From an uncultured Solirubrobacterales bacterium (lineage in GTDB: Bacteria > Actinomycetota > Thermoleophilia > Solirubrobacterales > JBBDJG01): a stretch of DNA of 64,000 bases. How positions within the stretch are numbered: the stretch's first letter is position 1; each line of letters begins with the position of its first letter. The notes under the pieces were generated by a model that did not search any database, was not told the DNA's origin, and saw only the letters and a program-made list of their open reading frames with translations. Location: NCBI GenBank assembly GCA_963774075.1, contig CAVZDP010000005.1, positions 186,179 to 250,178 on the forward strand, written 5' to 3'. A program made the position numbers and the translations under genes. Positions 14,072 through 64,000 of this stretch are shown in pieces.

Positions 14072-15527
14072 GGCGCTGCGCGGGGCTTGCGTCGCCCGCC
14101 GCCGCTACCTCCCGTGGACGCGCGGCCTGGACCACGCGCACGCCCCGCTTCGGAACGATCGTGACGCCCTTGCGGAACCCCTTCTCGGGTCGCCGTCCGA
14201 CCGCGTCCAGCTCGGCGCGCTCGAGCACTCGGCGTACGACCACCTTCATCTCGAACATTGCGAAGCTGGCCCCGATGCAGCGCCGCGTGCCGCCACCGAA
14301 CGGTATCCACGTATACGTGTCGGGAGCGTCAGGTCCAAGGAAGCGCTCGGGCCGGAAGGCGCGCGGCTCCGGATAGCGGTCGGCGCGGCGGTGGATCGCC
14401 GCGATCGAGGGGTTGATCTCCATCCCCGGCGGTATCACGTATCCACCCAGCTCGAACGGCTGGCCGCGCACGACCCTCCCCACTCCCGGAACGACCGGTC
14501 GCAGGCGCAGGGATTCCTTGACGACCGCGTCGAGGTACGTCTCGTCCTGCTCGGCCAGGGAGGATCGCAGCCGGTCCAAAGCCGGCCGGTTGCGAAGCAG
14601 AAGCTCGAACGTCCACGCGAGCCCTGTCGCCGTCGTCTCGTGGCCGGCGACGAGCAGGGTCACGAGCTCGTCGCGAAGCTCCCTGTCGGTCATGGCGCGT
14701 CCATCCTCGTCTCGGGCGAGCAGCAGCATCGAGAAGACGTCCTCGCGGCTCTCGAGGTCCGGCTCCTCTCGACGGTGGCGGATCTCGTCGTAGATCAGCT
14801 CGTCGACCGCTCGGCGAGACTCCTCGAAGCGCCTCATGCCGCCGTTGCCGAAGCGGCCGCTCGACAGCGCCATCACGAGAATGCCGAGCCTCGTGCCGAC
14901 GGGGTCGAGCATCGACCGCACGCGCCGTTTCAACTCCTCGGCGCGGACTCGCTCGGTGACGCCGAAGACCGCGTGCATGATCACGTCGAGCGTGAGCGAC
15001 TGCATCGAGGCAAGCAACTCGAAGGGGCGCCCGACGGGCCAGCTATCGATCTGCTGATCCGCCGCCCGGCGCATCGCCGCTTCGTACTCGCGCATGCGCT
15101 CGCCATGGAAGGCGGGAAGCATCAACCGCCGCTCCCGCAGGTGCTGCTCGCCGTCCAGCAGGAGAAGAGAGCGCTCGCCGACGACCGGCCCGAGCGGGGC
15201 ATTTGCCTCCCCCGCGCGCAGCTGGTCCGGCGAGCCCCGGAAAAGCTTCTTCACGTGCTCGGGCTCGAAGACCATCACGAAGCAGGGGTCGAAGAGCGTT
15301 CCGAACGTGACCATGTCTCCGTAGCGTCGCCTGCAGGTGTCGATGAAGGGGATCGGCAGGATGAACCCGAGCGTCTGCATCCAGCGCGGCATGCTCGGGC
15401 CGGGCGGCAGTGACGCCTCGGGGTGCAGGAGCGAGCCCTTGGCGCGCGGCCCCTTCGAGGCCATGAAGCCGTTCGTCGAGCCGTTCGCGCGCGAGCCGGC
15501 CGATTCGATGGAGTCGCGTGCGCTCAA
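14040..15527 (-). CDS. Cytochrome P450
   Basis: AGHETT, ESLR and FGGGTRRCIG; TTG start overlaps the upstream stop (alternative ATG at 15464). Confidence 0.95.
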   Translation of the reverse strand: MSARDSIESAGSRANGSTNGFMASKGPRAKGSLLHPEASLPPGPSMPRWMQTLGFILPIPFIDTCRRRYGDMVTFGTLFDPCFVMVFEPEHVKKLFRGSPDQLRAGEANAPLGPVVGERSLLLLDGEQHLRERRLMLPAFHGERMREYEAAMRRAADQQIDSWPVGRPFELLASMQSLTLDVIMHAVFGVTERVRAEELKRRVRSMLDPVGTRLGILVMALSSGRFGNGGMRRFEESRRAVDELIYDEIRHRREEPDLESREDVFSMLLLARDEDGRAMTDRELRDELVTLLVAGHETTATGLAWTFELLLRNRPALDRLRSSLAEQDETYLDAVVKESLRLRPVVPGVGRVVRGQPFELGGYVIPPGMEINPSIAAIHRRADRYPEPRAFRPERFLGPDAPDTYTWIPFGGGTRRCIGASFAMFEMKVVVRRVLERAELDAVGRRPEKGFRKGVTIVPKRGVRVVQAARPREVAAAGDASPAQRLTRTGEPATR

Positions 15528-15988
15528 CGGAGGTAGGGCACGATCCGGGCCCGGAACAGCCCGCCCCAGCCGCGAGGACTGGCGAGGACCTTGATCAGGA
15601 TGGGAAGGGCGTCGAAGTAGCTTGTCCTCTCCGCGCCGGCGCCATCGCGAAGGACGAATCGGTCCACGGCGCGCCAGCTGAGCTCGCGGCCTCCGAAGGT
15701 GCAGCTCGCCGTGAAGTCGATGAACAGGATTTCTTCGCGCGCAGCCCACTCGTGGACGGTCACGTGCAGGCCCGGGAAGGCAGTGAAAACTCGTAAGAAT
15801 GCCGCTCTGGCGGCCTGCTTGCCGACGGTCGTCGGCATCATCGGCGCACGCAGCACGACGTCGTCGGTGAGCAGCTCCAGCAGGGGCTCGGCGGCCGACC
15901 TCGACCACGCCTCCTCGAACCGCTGAACGAAGGCCGCCGCCACGCCTTCGGCGGCGTGATCGGCGCTGCGCTCGGCTGCCACTGCCAT
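15524..15988 (-). CDS. SnoaL/NTF2-like protein
   Basis: LLTDDVVL..P and AFPGL pattern; AGGAGG SD. Confidence 0.85.
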   Translation of the reverse strand: MAVAAERSADHAAEGVAAAFVQRFEEAWSRSAAEPLLELLTDDVVLRAPMMPTTVGKQAARAAFLRVFTAFPGLHVTVHEWAAREEILFIDFTASCTFGGRELSWRAVDRFVLRDGAGAERTSYFDALPILIKVLASPRGWGGLFRARIVPYLR

Positions 15989-16127
15989 GCACCCTCCTCT
16001 CCGCCTGACCCTCGACTCGAAGGATCTCCTCCCCGCGCGCGAGGAAAAGTGATCTTGGTCACTCAGGCGCTCCACGTCTTCACGTGACATGAGCTCAGGG
16101 TAGCTCCCGCCGTGGCGGGGCCACAGG

Positions 16128-27140: not shown

Positions 27141-27621
27141 TATCTACGCCCTGGTTCGATCTCCAATGTCAGCACGCCAGCCACGCATCCAGCACCTCGC
27201 TTTTCAGACGAAGCTGACGCCCGCGCCTGTGCTGTTGCTGGCCGACGACGCCGCGAGAGAACCAGTGGCCAGCAAGCCAGCGCGGCGGCCGCCCGGCGGC
27301 ACCAGGCCTGCCGGGGTCTCGATCGCGACGTGCGGGTTGCGCCGAATCCGGTCGAGCTTCTTCGGTGCCCCACCGAGCGGGCGTGACGTAGCCAAGCGCG
27401 ACCGCGTGGTCGCCATCGATGACCTCTTCGACCGCATCCGGTTATGGCAATACGGGACGTCACATCGCGAAAAAAATAGAGCCCGAAAGTGGAGACGATC
27501 GGTTCGGCAGCCGCGCAAAGCCGGTCCTGATGAGGGATGGCGCGCACGACCGAGCGCCCTACTGCCACAGCCCACGTGCCCTAGGATCGATACAACCCAT
27601 TCACCCAAGACACTGGATCCA

Positions 27622-28176
27622 GTGGCCAGCGATACCGCAAAAAGCGGCCGTACCCCCGACCAACGTCTCGCCACCCGGTTTCCGCCGCTTGCGCACGCGG
27701 TTGCCGCGTCGGTGCTGCGCCTGCCCCCGGGGTCACGCGTGCGGCGAGCCCTTGTAGTGCGGACCGCGCGCACCGGCTTCGAGGCGTGGGTGCGCGGCGA
27801 TTACGACGTCCTGAGGGCCGCTGCCGATCCCAAGGTCGAGGTGCACCTCGAAATGGCCTCCGGCACGGGTGGTTTTGAGGTACCGGTGGGCTTCGATGAG
27901 ATCTACCACGGCCCCGACGGATACTGCGAGTCCATGAAGCAGTGGGCGCAATCCTTCAGGAACTGGCGCGCCGAGGTAGACGAGGTGATCGAGGAAGCCC
28001 CCGATCGGATTCTCATCATTGCCCGTCACTCGGGCGAGGGCATTGCCAGCGGTGTCGAGCTCGAGCAATGGGGAGCGGTTCGCTACACGGTCCACCACGG
28101 AAGGATCGTGCGGCTGGACGGTTTCTTCGGACAAGATAGAGATGGCGTCATCGAGGAGATCGGCATCCAGGACTAG
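27622..28176 (+). CDS. SnoaL/NTF2-like protein
   Basis: YHGPDG, GEGIASGVELE and GRIVRL pattern; start estimated. Confidence 0.78.
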   Translation: MASDTAKSGRTPDQRLATRFPPLAHAVAASVLRLPPGSRVRRALVVRTARTGFEAWVRGDYDVLRAAADPKVEVHLEMASGTGGFEVPVGFDEIYHGPDGYCESMKQWAQSFRNWRAEVDEVIEEAPDRILIIARHSGEGIASGVELEQWGAVRYTVHHGRIVRLDGFFGQDRDGVIEEIGIQD

Positions 28177-28201: not shown

Positions 28202-28531
28202 GTTCCCGGAACCGTGTGGGACTTCACGCACTGGGAGGGATGATGGCCCGATGCCACGGCCTATCGTGGCTCGGGCATCGCGGATGTCCTTGGGTTGCTC
28301 CGCGACGCCTTCGGCGAGATTGACCACCGGCCCGTCGAGATCGTGGAGGCCGGCGAGGACCGCATGTTCGTCAAGGCGACGGGTACTTTCCGCGGCAAGG
28401 CGAGCGGCGCCAAGGTCGACGTGCCGCCTTATGCCCAGATCATCGAGTTCCGCGACGACCTGATCGCACGGGTTGAGAACTATTCCGACGTAGACACTGC
28501 GCGCCGGGCTACCGAGGTCGAAAAGCCCTAG
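28202..28531 (+). pseudogene. 5'-truncated SnoaL/NTF2 gene with an in-frame TGA
   Basis: Frame reads VWDFTHWEG*WPDATAYRG...GKASGAKV..EFRDDLIARVENY; no start codon; stop at 28241. Confidence 0.7.
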
Positions 28532-29939: not shown

Positions 29940-30332
29940 GTGACCGCAGTGAGCGGCGACGCACAACGGCTCCTTCGAGGCGCCTACGCCGCCTTCAACG
30001 CGCGCGACCTCGATGCCGCGCTGGCGATCATGCACCCGGACGTCGACTGGCCGAATGTGATGGAGGGTTCCCGAGTGCGCGGTCATCTGGGGGTCCGTGG
30101 CTACTGGACGCGCCAGTTCGAGCAGATCGACTCACGCGTCGAACCCGAGCGGTTCAACGTCACGGACGACGGCCGCGTGGCCGTCGACGTTCATCAGGTA
30201 GTCCGTACCCTCGCCGGCGACGTCATCTCCGATGAGCGCGTCACGCATATCTACACGATCCGCGATGGCCTGATCGAACGCATGGACGTTGTCGACGGCG
30301 AAGGGCGTACCTCTAGCGCGATCGCTCCTTGA
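29940..30332 (+). CDS. SnoaL/NTF2-like protein
   Basis: YAAFNARDLD, HPDVDWPN and HIYTIRDGLIERM. Confidence 0.9.
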   Translation: MTAVSGDAQRLLRGAYAAFNARDLDAALAIMHPDVDWPNVMEGSRVRGHLGVRGYWTRQFEQIDSRVEPERFNVTDDGRVAVDVHQVVRTLAGDVISDERVTHIYTIRDGLIERMDVVDGEGRTSSAIAP

Positions 30333-62002: not shown

Positions 62003-63289
62003 CTACCGCCCGATCCCCTCGTACACGAAGCCCGCCGAGCGCACCTTCTCCGCGTCGAGGAGGTTGCGACCGTCGACGATCACCGGGGCTTTCATGCGAG
62101 CTTTCACCTGCTCCAGATCGAGTTCGGCGAACTCGGGCCACTCCGTCACGATAACCACTGCATCGGCTCCATCCAGAGCGTCCATCGCGGTGTCACACAT
62201 CTCCGCTCCCGTGATCAGCTCTCGGGCGTGGTCCTCGGCGACCGGATCGTACGTTCGCACGCGCGCTCCCTCGCCCTGCAGGCGCGCGGCCAGAACGACG
62301 CTGGAGGCCTCTCTCATGTCGTCGGTGTTGGGCTTGAACGCCAGCCCCAGCAGCGCTATCTCCTTGCCGACGAGGGAGCCCAGGTGCTTCTTGAGCTTGT
62401 TCACCACCCGCCGCTTCTGGAGCTCGTTCACCTCGATCACCGAGGTGAGAAGCTGGAAGTGGTAGCCGGAGTTGCCGGCCAGTTGCTTCAGGGCTGACAC
62501 ATCTTTTGGAAAACATGAGCCACCGTAACCGATGCCGGCGTTTAGGAAGTTAGGCCCGATGCGAGGGTCGAGGCCCATGCCGAGGGCGACCTGCTTCACG
62601 TCGGAGCCGACCTCCTCGCAGACGTTGGCGATCTCGTTGATGAACGAGATCTTGGTCGCGAGAAAGGCGTTCGAGGCGAGCTTGATCATCTCGGCCGAGG
62701 GGACGTCGGTGCGGACGACCGGGCAGTCGAGAGGCTCGTACAGCGCGACCACCGCGTCGCCGGCCCAGACGTCGCCGTCGCTGCCGACGACGACCCGGTC
62801 CGGGTTCATGAAGTCGTCCACAGCGGAGCCTTCCTTCAGGAACTCGGGGTTTGAGACATAGGCGAGACCCGCCTTGCCGAGCTCGGCCAGCCTCCACTTG
62901 ATCGCGGCGCCGGTGCCGGCCGGCACGGTGCTCTTCATGACGATCGCGTGGTCGCCGGTGGCCGGAAGCTCGTCGATGACCGCATGTACGCGCGAGAGGT
63001 CGGCGTCACCGGAGTACGTCGGCGGGGTGTCCACGCACACGAAGAGCAGCCGAGCATTCTCGAGGATCGGCGCCACGTCGCTCTCGAAGTGCAGGCGCTC
63101 GCGATTCTTGGCGACCAGCTCGCCCAGTCCCGGCTCGAAGATCGGGACCTGACCGCCGCGCAGGGTGGCGATCTTCTCCGCGTCGATGTCGCGGCACCAC
63201 ACCTCGTGCCCGAGTTCGGCGAAACAGGCCGCGCTCACCAGGCCGACCCAGCCGACGCCGATCACTCCTATCGGTGGTCGCTCCGGCAT
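62003..63289 (-). CDS. ugd: UDP-glucose/GDP-mannose dehydrogenase
   Basis: GVGWVG, KSTVP, SNPEFL, GGSCFPKD and FKPNTDD. Confidence 0.95.
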   Translation of the reverse strand: MPERPPIGVIGVGWVGLVSAACFAELGHEVWCRDIDAEKIATLRGGQVPIFEPGLGELVAKNRERLHFESDVAPILENARLLFVCVDTPPTYSGDADLSRVHAVIDELPATGDHAIVMKSTVPAGTGAAIKWRLAELGKAGLAYVSNPEFLKEGSAVDDFMNPDRVVVGSDGDVWAGDAVVALYEPLDCPVVRTDVPSAEMIKLASNAFLATKISFINEIANVCEEVGSDVKQVALGMGLDPRIGPNFLNAGIGYGGSCFPKDVSALKQLAGNSGYHFQLLTSVIEVNELQKRRVVNKLKKHLGSLVGKEIALLGLAFKPNTDDMREASSVVLAARLQGEGARVRTYDPVAEDHARELITGAEMCDTAMDALDGADAVVIVTEWPEFAELDLEQVKARMKAPVIVDGRNLLDAEKVRSAGFVYEGIGR

Positions 63290-63354
63290 GTAGTCAGGTT
63301 ATCGGTCGCCGGCGCGAGGAATGTGACTTAGAGGGCTGGCTAATCGGCCTCGGC

Positions 63355-63498
63355 ATCTCCTGCGACATGGATTACTCCGGCAGCCCCACGGCTTCGAGGG
63401 CCTCGGCGTGATGCCAGAAGGACTCCTGGTAGGAGATCCTGCCCTTGCGCAACGTGTAGACGGCCGTGAACTCCAACTGTGTCGTTCTCCTGCGACAT
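63355..63498 (-). pseudogene. Collapsed SnoaL gene remnants: MSQEN fused out of frame to a C-terminus (..ALEAVGLPE*), then a further MSQE stub
   Basis: ATGTCGCAGGAGAACG at 63498 is followed by TQLEFTAVYTLRKGRISYQESFWHHAEALEAVGLPE* (stop 63372); ATGTCGCAGGAGA recurs at 63368. Confidence 0.85.
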
Positions 63499-63503
63499 CG
63501 CGC

Positions 63504-63917
63504 TTACTCCGTCAGTCCCACGGATTCGAGGGCTTCCTGCAACTGCAGCTCGTTGTAGTAGACGATTTCTGCGATTTTGCCGGCTCGCACGGTGCAGACC
63601 ACGGCATCGTGGAGGGAAAGCTCGATCCCGCTTCCCTGGCCCTTGCAGAGCATCAGGAACAGGGCGATAGCTCGGTCCTCCCCCACGGGTCGCACCTCCA
63701 CGCCCTCGATCCTCCAACTCCCCCAGGCATCGCTCCAGACCTCGAGCCACTTGCGCACTCCGTCGTGTCCTCGGTAGAGCTCGGTGTCGAGGCTGATGTC
63801 CCGATCGTCCACCTCAACATCGGGGTCCAGCTCAGCGAGAACCGACCGCCAGTCGTCGTCGCGGCGATTGAATCCCGCGATCAGCCTTTGCACAACCTCC
63901 ACGTTCTGCTGCGACAT
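63504..63917 (-). CDS. SnoaL/NTF2-like protein (MSQQNVE...ALESVGLTE type)
   Basis: LDPDVE, YRGHDG, GQGSGIEL and GKIAEI pattern. Confidence 0.92.
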   Translation of the reverse strand: MSQQNVEVVQRLIAGFNRRDDDWRSVLAELDPDVEVDDRDISLDTELYRGHDGVRKWLEVWSDAWGSWRIEGVEVRPVGEDRAIALFLMLCKGQGSGIELSLHDAVVCTVRAGKIAEIVYYNELQLQEALESVGLTE

Positions 63918-63938
63918 GACCCGCGCGGTATCCCGCAC

Positions 63939-64000
63939 TTACCCGGAGCGCGTGAGCGAGCGCGCAACGCCGAGCATCTCTCCCTCGGACAGCGTCTGCA
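63939..64000 (-). CDS. 3' end of an upstream gene (..QTLSEGEMLGVARSLTRSG*), possibly LCP family
   Basis: Frame is open to the window edge; family is a guess from the C-terminal resemblance and ugd context. Confidence 0.4.
   Translation of the reverse strand, partial: QTLSEGEMLGVARSLTRSG

Follow-up and report, generated by a model that had tools for sequence, protein, structure and literature searches.

A block of SnoaL-like gene cassettes with conserved junctions between the LCP and ugd genes of an uncultured Solirubrobacterales bacterium

Integron arrays, including the clusters of attC sites that lack an integrase (CALINs), are built of head-to-tail one-gene units in a single orientation, with a short conserved boundary element. 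In the Neisseria pilE/pilS and Borrelia vlsE systems, conserved ends flank variable middles and supply the homology for RecA-dependent exchange. Homology-facilitated illegitimate recombination, described for the uptake of foreign DNA in transformable bacteria, uses a one-sided homology anchor, and the poly-immunity loci of polymorphic toxin systems hold tandem, small, divergent and strain-variable paralogs (families of the Imm-NTF2 type) with frequent relics. Here we analyse a block of 583 nucleotides (nt) that resembles these systems in part. It lies on the minus strand (63938-63356) of a 64,000-nt stretch of DNA, termed the window throughout, from an uncultured soil Solirubrobacterales bacterium (assembly GCA_963774075.1, contig CAVZDP010000005.1, positions 186,179-250,178), between the stop codon of an LCP gene and the upstream region of ugd. 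The block holds one intact gene of the SnoaL/NTF2 family, followed head to tail by remnants of two more. Each gene unit is called a cassette here, its conserved ends the 5′ and 3′ handles, and two handles joined head to tail a junction. No description of SnoaL/NTF2 cassette arrays came up in full-text literature searches.

We give about even odds (roughly 0.5) to the reading that such gene units are gained, moved and lost via homology-based recombination at the junction repeats, which would also serve as expression modules, and that the locus in the window is an outpost in decay. The block would then belong to a lineage-specific, single-gene cassette family of uncultured soil Solirubrobacterales, whose members are gained, relocated and lost mainly by homology-dependent recombination between junction repeats of 50-90 nt. 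The pathway may be RecA-type crossing-over or gene conversion, single-strand annealing, or homology-anchored illegitimate joining. Ordinary deletions would then erode the cassettes; in the window, one would have lost ~270 nt of its interior and the last one everything beyond its first 13 nt.

The cassette ends are conserved as DNA over ~15-24 nt at the start and ~30 nt at the end, and joined head to tail they form two types of junction module. Junction J1 reads ..GCCCTCGAAGCC..GGAG-stop-3 nt-ATGTCGCAGGAGAAC (in full ..GCCCTCGAAGCCGTGGGCCTCTCGGAG-TAG-GCG-ATGTCGCAGGAGAAC) and occurs in 15 copies at ≤4 mismatches in the window's own genome (G000; 3.3 Mb in nine contigs, C1 to C9), compared to none in the control. 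Junction J2 has the same ends, but reads on for ~9 codons (..EQDAHADS) to a TGA, followed by ACCTGCGGGATACTGCGCGGGCG before the ATG (GATACT-N9-ATG), and is present in 11 copies versus none. The left edge of the block, GTGCGGGATACCGCGCGGGTC, agrees with the family-wide right half of J2, CTGCGGGATACTGCGCGGGCGATG, at 20 of 24 positions; the latter has 11 copies in G000 at ≤3 mismatches and none in the reversed-genome control. It contains a -10-like GATACC (63932-63927), 9 nt ahead of the ATG. With contig C7 left out, the 15-nt start (≤2 mismatches) is found 63 times in G000 and 7 times in the reversed genome, and the 3′ core 37 and 4 times, respectively; thus the likeness of the handles is not due to chance.

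Compared to its relatives, the block is an insertion. In all ten related LCP-ugd loci, those of both same-genus genomes among them, a gap of 40-85 nt separates the two genes, and it contains no family sequence. The ortholog of the intact gene in a complete genome of the same genus (G001; 75% nucleotide identity) lies at a different locus, in a two-cassette block with the order J2-A-J1-B-J2-start stub, A and B being the two cassettes. The sequences on either side of it are syntenic with C5:393-398 kb of G000, which lacks the block and has only 65 nt in its place. Homology between the window and the cassette A locus sets in ~20 nt ahead of the ATG and stops 16 nt inside the start that follows, which indicates that the window block begins and ends at junction edges. 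A copy of the same cassette in the other same-genus genome (G002) is 90.5% identical to that of G001 and has a third, different downstream context. Directly behind this G002 copy lies a 105-nt stretch (C38:459-563) that is 93% identical to C9:203803-203907 of G000, possibly a small intergenic repeat.

The arrays themselves also differ between these genomes. Only three of eight intact cassettes from the C2:135-139 kb array of G000 find a counterpart in G001 at E ≤ 1e-25 (40 of 200 candidates scored), and the three counterparts lie at 0.98, 1.28 and 2.90 Mb. In one ortholog pair (84%), the gene is preceded by J1 in G000 and by J2 plus an 80-nt leader in G001. The first-pass annotation of the window, made from its letters, had proposed to compare the arrays among strains; the differences turn out to be strong even within the genus, with the ortholog of the intact cassette elsewhere and homology stopping inside the junctions. 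No clear target-site duplication was seen at the LCP-ugd site. The LCP-ugd spacer of G001 (GGATACC..CGGGCG..ACTCCTGA) may be the relic of a lost cassette, but its likeness is no better than that to general GATAAT-N8-ATG leaderless promoters, such as that of ugd.

The conservation of the handles is at the DNA level. Pairwise identity at third codon positions in the arrays reaches 0.87-0.89 for the 5′ handle and 0.64-0.84 for the 3′ handle, versus 0.38-0.39 for the interior, where the median amino-acid identity is 0.24-0.27. In the large arrays of G001 (59 genes at seven loci) and of G025, a genome of another family (62 genes at four loci), nearly all synonymous sites of both handles are fixed. 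As synonymous sites are conserved in the handles whereas the interior is saturated, protein constraint alone does not explain the junctions. The nucleotide-level conservation claimed in the first-pass annotation is thus borne out by two of the checks it had suggested, the genome-wide junction search and the comparison of synonymous sites. Moreover, over 73-90 nt the J2 sequences of G000 and G001 agree at 89-100%, compared to 81% for the ugd genes of these two genomes.

Codon choice in G000 (126 members, C7 copies left out) departs from family usage mainly at a CTC-GAA-GCC block, with CTC for Leu141 in 52 of 75 genes, GAA for Glu142 in 43 of 52 and GCC for Ala143 in 47 of 76. Biases are also seen at Ser TCG codons, at Ala151 GCT (a column filled mostly by members reading on past column 148) and at one interior Ser AGC. 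GAA accounts for 18% of the Glu codons elsewhere in the family (p 6e-24) and for 9% in a set of open reading frames (ORFs) with high G+C at third positions, and yet in the sets of three genomes it is used at this Glu in 43/52, 43/45 and 44/45 genes. The block is nearly fixed in array members of two taxonomic families, f1 (that of the window's genome) and f4 (that of G025). In the window it occupies 63524-63516 (CTCGAATCC) and 63395-63387 (CTCGAAGCC), 25-33 nt ahead of the next start, and GAA is equally kept in array-terminal genes, which have no cassette downstream (27/31, 16/16 and 14/15). By contrast, 40 solo homologues from other families of the class were sampled, in approximate order of score, from the listed matches in genomes other than G000 and G025; 13 of them have Glu in that column, and just 4 of these 13 encode it with GAA. 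Therefore, the DNA-level handle belongs to the expanded array-forming lineage rather than to SnoaL proteins generally.

The junctions also carry what look like expression signals. Every J1 has GGAG 6-8 nt ahead of the next ATG, a fixed 3-nt spacing and no -10-like box, and resembles a translational coupling signal; the head-to-tail stop-3 nt-ATG spacing occurs at 15 junctions in G000, 24 in G001 and 29 in G025. The right half of J2 is plausibly a leaderless promoter, judging by general knowledge of leaderless genes in actinobacteria. GATA[ACT]T-N6-11-ATG is also found ahead of non-family genes, and an exact, full J2 promoter precedes a membrane-protein-like gene at C4:28687 of G000. A scan of 63200-64000 for the sigma-70 consensus and for terminators gave no site of either kind.

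These signals are central to a serious, though less probable, alternative, in which the junctions are expression signals only (a leaderless-type promoter, a GGAG Shine-Dalgarno sequence in the last codons, stop-3 nt-start coupling and, possibly, a site for a common regulator) of an ordinary birth-and-death family shaped by tandem duplication and random deletion, and the handles have no role in rearrangement. The cassette family does share with birth-and-death families the head-to-tail paralogs, the many pseudogenes and fragments and a copy number that differs between relatives. The alternative also agrees with junction DNA that is not hairpin-prone, with a handle consensus common to two taxonomic families that show no evidence of having exchanged cassettes, and with a 508-base-pair (bp) single-gene duplication without handles, described below. 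However, conservation here is confined to the two gene ends, including intergenic bases and rare codons, around saturated bodies, and orthologous cassettes lie at non-syntenic loci with different neighbours. In addition, junction halves persist as stubs beside unrelated genes and alone, and the conserved CTCGAAGCC, 25-33 nt ahead of the following start, is no less conserved where no cassette follows. Changing GAA to GAG in silico leaves the predicted accessibility from Shine-Dalgarno sequence to start unchanged (0.436 vs 0.432, p 0.99). The nearly fixed CTC-GAA-GCC is explained neither by coupling nor by the avoidance of structure.

Two specific causes of the fixed GAA were rejected. For the avoidance of RNA structure, the change of GAA to GAG made the RNA across the junction more stable in 37 of 63 segments (mean -1.05 kcal/mol) and GCC to GCG had the opposite effect in 47 of 63, but accessibility did not respond and the junctions are not less structured than shuffles (mean z 0.04). 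Avoidance of the restriction site CTCGAG fails as well, since CTCGAG occurs freely, even inside the intact gene.

At the locus itself, the sequence details of the first-pass annotation are right throughout: an intact MSQQNVE...ALESVGLTE gene with GATACC, a putative promoter element, upstream of its ATG; a second start joined out of frame to the last ~36 codons of a SnoaL-family gene; a third start that breaks off; breaks 13-16 nt after the ATG (stubs of 16 and 13 nt); and at least four more SnoaL genes or relics in the window, where four family ORFs were found with a hidden Markov model (HMM) of the family (Table 1). The 34-codon ORF of the collapsed remnant (63372..63476) is offset by 22 nt from the ATG at 63498, and beyond the 13-nt stub (63368-63356) the sequence is unrelated as far as the ugd ATG at 63289. 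The second unit had been taken for a join to a different SnoaL gene, which is not needed. It belongs to a better-conserved subfamily, with its last 100-120 nt 79-89% identical to the 3′ ends of paralogs; the likeness begins at ~63475, and ~270 nt of gene body are missing. The simplest account would be a deletion of ~270 nt inside one gene, possibly at a GAGA(A)C microhomology.

Similar collapse products are common elsewhere. A unit at C2:137600-137796 of G000 keeps ~28 N-terminal and 36 C-terminal codons, and the arrays of G001 and G025 contain further 5′ stubs and 3′ pieces. The share of handle starts that open intact-like units is 26/52 in G000, 38/53 in G001 and 38/60 in G025. Eight relics of G000 retain the start region (first 16 codons), and four stubs break 12-16 nt after the ATG (the window locus twice, C9:367897 and C9:238979). 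The excess of such very short stubs in G000 is real, but partly a recognition effect, because only the conserved 13 nt can be recognised. As the position-specific scoring rule for starts also flagged intact divergent genes, relics were counted as ORFs of <110 codons, and hits without junction context were dropped; C5:336572 and a few other 13-mer hits were rejected as chance matches inside other genes. The seamless joints at the handle and the novel joints just past the homology, at the 13-nt and 16-nt stubs, recall homology-facilitated illegitimate recombination, although nothing here points to a DNA-uptake route.

Several observations weigh against recombination at the junctions as the source of this turnover. 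The expression signals could alone be under selection. The relatives have no clear junction-like target at the insertion site. Break points are not fixed: remnants measure 12-27 nt and longer on the 5′ side and ~30-111 nt on the 3′ side, and in G025 the breaks are spread over codons 4-14, so that the collapse products are not precise as had been supposed. The remnant at C2:137686-137796 matches, at 81% identity, the end of a G001 cassette of full length, which indicates that relics can be old and stable. No recent event with junction-bounded identity was caught; G000 has a single near-identical pair (508 bp, 96.7%), and this is a family member without handles that was copied together with its leader. 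The same handle consensus is found in f1 and f4, with cassettes ≤76.5% identical in the arrays compared, which fits purifying selection at least as well as recombinational homogenisation; exchange of cassettes between f1 and f4 as the source of the uniform handles was rejected, since the best cassette identity of 76.5% is near the ugd level of 73%. Finally, the evidence consists of contigs, not reads. Altogether, the proposal that conserved ends act as recombination handles stands as far as DNA-level conservation and differing arrays are concerned, whereas no recombination event at a handle has been caught directly.

The 508-bp unit just mentioned (C3:56588-57094 and C5:83702-84208 of G000) comprises a single SnoaL-type gene that lacks handles, ~100 nt of the leader belonging to it and a 9-nt trailer, copied between contigs. 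One of the two copies stands directly behind a handle-bearing cassette.

Like integrons, the arrays carry very different cargo, including a few unrelated genes, and vary in content even among close relatives. Junction halves enclose two glyoxalase-family genes in G025; one of these genes is preceded by a J2 promoter plus a 19-codon start stub and followed by a 3′ handle that stands alone. A DUF899 gene follows a J2 promoter in G001, and a non-family gene of ~90 residues stands between J2-like relics at the end of the G000 C2 array. A 287-codon ORF without Pfam match (C2:315216-316079 of G000) starts with MSQENVEIV directly behind J1, and at C9:238.98 kb an isolated junction has nothing recognisable on either side. 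Such cases count in favour of homology-based turnover at the junctions. In a broader idea that we regard as tentative, the ~50-90-nt junction may be a discrete portable element that equips any sequence enclosed by two copies with a start, an end, and either coupling or a promoter, and at the same time the crossover site of a cassette exchange that is independent of a recombinase (or uses an unknown enzyme), allowing soil Solirubrobacterales to keep and reshuffle 100-200 small-molecule-binding proteins, ~4% of genes.

The differences from integrons lie in the machinery and in the boundary. None of five array-rich genomes has a match over the cut-off for the integron integrase IntI (TIGR02249), and as single-stranded DNA none of seven junctions folds better than shuffles (z -0.63 to +1.79), in keeping with the first-pass annotation, which had seen no attC sites and no recombinase. 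The boundary is not an imperfect palindrome but overlaps the coding ends and encodes the first 5-8 and last 9-10 residues. In addition, many units have a putative promoter of their own, and nearly all the cargo is one protein family. The annotation had also suggested profiling for a co-occurring recombinase or reverse transcriptase. G000 has no RVT_1 match, and none of the 61 ORFs in or beside the G001 and G025 arrays is a recombinase, transposase or reverse transcriptase. Those 61 ORFs include DUF899 (4), glyoxalase (2), PD40/DPPIV-type repeat proteins (2), an epoxide hydrolase N-terminus, SRPBCC, GNAT, MFS, DSBA and hydrolases. Nor does the block resemble a transposon or a miniature inverted-repeat transposable element, as its edges are junction sequence, not inverted repeats, and no transposase is among these ORFs.

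Tyrosine recombinases (PF00589) have seven matches in G000, none of them in the window; two are probably Xer-type, judging from length and score, and three broken phage-type ones are next to arrays. They comprise a frameshifted integrase beside tRNA-Val at C9:225.1-226.4 kb, with a small ORF in front that looks excisionase-type by eye, a truncated one at C2:133.6-134.3 kb, ~450 nt before the C2 array, and a broken one adjoining an array at C3:59.0-59.5 kb. In G001, arrays begin ~150-200 nt downstream of tRNA-His and tRNA-Met. Given these neighbours, the arrays tend to sit in island-type hot spots, yet nothing ties the broken integrases to the junctions, and the window locus has neither a tRNA nor an integrase.

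These neighbourhoods bear on a further alternative, a dedicated site-specific system, integron-like, with an unrecognised recombinase that would cut and join inside the junction, the latter being the actual site of the mobile element and array-end stubs its footprints. The sharp junction edges, at which the window block starts and ends, the frequent termination of arrays in a start stub, the isolated junction and the several arrays that abut tRNA genes and truncated integrases would all suit it. We nevertheless consider it improbable: the searches for an integron integrase (five genomes), a reverse transcriptase (G000) and array-side recombinases (61 ORFs) were empty, the junctions do not fold, stub lengths vary from 12 to 27 nt and more, and the integrases found are ordinary tRNA-island types, and broken.

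Recombination between junction repeats would resemble the gene conversion of silent cassettes in its conserved ends around variable middles. Compared to pilE/pilS and vlsE, however, the cassettes are complete genes, most units being full ORFs with start and stop, and there is no single expression site supplied by truncated donors; the proteins look cytoplasmic, unlike surface antigens. The arrays also share with poly-immunity loci the tandem arrangement of small, divergent, strain-variable paralogs with many relics. They differ in that no immunity-named family was matched at E ≤ 1 by nine members scanned against Pfam and no toxin genes or domains are among the 61 neighbouring ORFs.

The product of the intact gene matches Pfam SnoaL_2 (PF12680; E 2.1e-9, 38.3 bits against a cut-off of 27), as do all nine aligned family members; at E ≤ 1 these nine hit SnoaL_2, SnoaL, DUF4440, SnoaL_3 and NTF2 plus four marginal unrelated families. 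Its AlphaFold2 model (pLDDT 90.5, pTM 0.85) adopts the NTF2/SnoaL α+β cone, which has three N-terminal helices and a curved sheet. Foldseek gave as the nearest solved structures TerC, SnoaL-like (putative polyketide) cyclases, limonene epoxide hydrolase and PhzA/B, with a probability of 1.00 and TM scores of 0.6-0.8. The 3′ handle encodes the final helix, residues 123-132. Going by the model, the cassette products would be ordinary cytoplasmic NTF2-fold pocket proteins, which probably form a variable repertoire for small molecules.

The family HMM, built iteratively from the copies of G000 itself, detects 129 ORFs in G000, at least 150 matches in G001 and 61 in G002. Array members are 23-40% identical to the window protein, and all start with MSQ.N.E and end with AL....E. 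A screen of 121 genomes of the class at E ≤ 1e-10 detects the family in 30, mostly with 1-9 matches each; as scoring stopped at 35 per genome, these counts are lower bounds. Large expansions are found in f1 and, within f4, in G025 and G049.

If the junctions are handles, these abundant and almost uncultured soil bacteria would have a gene-cassette system without integron integrase or attC, built into the coding ends of the genes themselves, and would show that there is a second way for bacteria to maintain a rapidly changing set of small proteins. Even under an ordinary reading, three features are without ready explanation: a single family that makes up ~4% of genes, a rare codon fixed across genera, and intergenic junctions that are identical between genomes whose ugd genes are far less so.

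The assembly of the locus was checked against Logan contigs of public runs, including the likely source run. In that run no contig spans the repeated handle at 63383-63411, where two contigs end with a 29-nt overlap, and the depth is 61 at the handle compared to ~6-7 around it. It is therefore conceivable, but very unlikely, that two contigs were wrongly joined through the repeat: each side has the handle sequence within its own contig, the overlap includes the locus-specific CTGCCGGAGTAATCC variant, and the join restores the LCP-ugd neighbourhood found in all ten relatives. Together with a depth of up to 1109 in another soil run, the depth at the handle indicates that it is highly repeated in soil communities. 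Relative to the window, the source-run contigs are one base short in each of two homopolymers, a CCC run at 63333 and a TTT run at 63617. The missing base at 63617 would frameshift the intact cassette, whereas the window version keeps the gene open and agrees with the G001 ortholog. Elsewhere in the assembly, the 24-kb contig C7 (C7:22194-23467) repeats the end of C5 (C5:592970-594244), including two cassettes and one relic. This is probably assembly redundancy, and the C7 copies were dropped from the counts as duplicates of the C5 end.

Table 1. Coordinates of the features in and around the LCP-ugd block (window positions) and of the J3 leader elsewhere in G000 (contig positions)
Feature	Position	Strand	Remarks
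LCP (LytR_cpsA_psr) gene, 3′ end	63939..64000	-	stop TAA 63941-63939; PF03816, E 4.3e-40
J2-type promoter junction half GTGCGGGATACCGCGCGGGTC	63918..63938	-	21 nt; left edge of the block
Intact cassette, SnoaL_2/NTF2-fold gene	63504..63917	-	ATG 63917; 137 codons + stop 63506-63504; MSQQNVE...ALESVGLTE
3′ handle of the intact cassette, GCCCTCGAATCCGTGGGACTGACGGAGTAA	63504..63533	-	contains conserved CTCGAA; GGAG 8 nt ahead of the next ATG
Spacer GCGCG + 16-nt 5′ handle stub ATGTCGCAGGAGAACG of the collapsed second cassette	63483..63503	-	stub at 63498-63483
3′ remnant of the collapsed cassette, ..HAEALEAVGLPE, TAA	63372..63482	-	111 nt; ..ALEAVGLPE; HMM columns 113-148; stop 63374-63372
Spacer TCC + 13-nt 5′ handle stub ATGTCGCAGGAGA	63356..63371	-	stub 63368-63356; right edge of the block
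24-codon open frame from the last stub through the ugd upstream region	63294..63368	-	TGA ends 4 nt ahead of the ugd ATG
ugd (UDP-glucose 6-dehydrogenase family)	62003..63289	-	upstream motif CCGATAAC-N7-ATG common to relatives
Further family ORFs, not tied to the block	27406-28176, 28295-28531, 29940-30332	+	own family HMM, E 2e-8 to 2e-27
Further family ORF, not tied to the block	15524-16075	-	own family HMM, E 2e-8 to 2e-27
J3 leader, G000	C9:50909-51013	-	
J3 leader, G000	C2:300.5-301.15 kb		
J3 leader, G000	C3:783.5 kb		
J3 leader, G000, partial	C3:787.4 kb		

The open frame that runs from the last stub toward ugd (Table 1) could allow read-through from the cassette block to couple into ugd translation, in this genome only. 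The ugd genes of this clade have a conserved upstream motif, CCGATAA(T/C)-N7-8-ATG (63290-63310 in the window, and at the loci of relatives), which resembles the J2 promoter of the cassettes and suggests a leaderless ugd mRNA.

A third arrangement, J3, has a conserved leader of ~80 nt inserted right behind ATGTCGCAGGAGA. The leader turns the start into a 6-codon ORF (MSQERP*), followed by two hairpin-like segments and a conserved mini-ORF, (G/A)TG AGG GCG TAT TTC TGA, after which GAG CAG AAC GTG GAG resumes the gene. No Rfam family matches the J3 leader, and its RNAalifold consensus is weak (covariation term +0.24, one compensatory pair of 17). A +1 frameshift at the mini-ORF, like that of prfB, was rejected, as UUC-U would slip poorly and most copies have a closed frame upstream. 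In 151 genomes of the order, J3 has 17 matches in seven genomes, three of them without a recognisable start upstream; the inspected copies with a recognisable upstream sequence are all in starts of family genes. The leader is 93-96% identical between genomes, with differing gene bodies.

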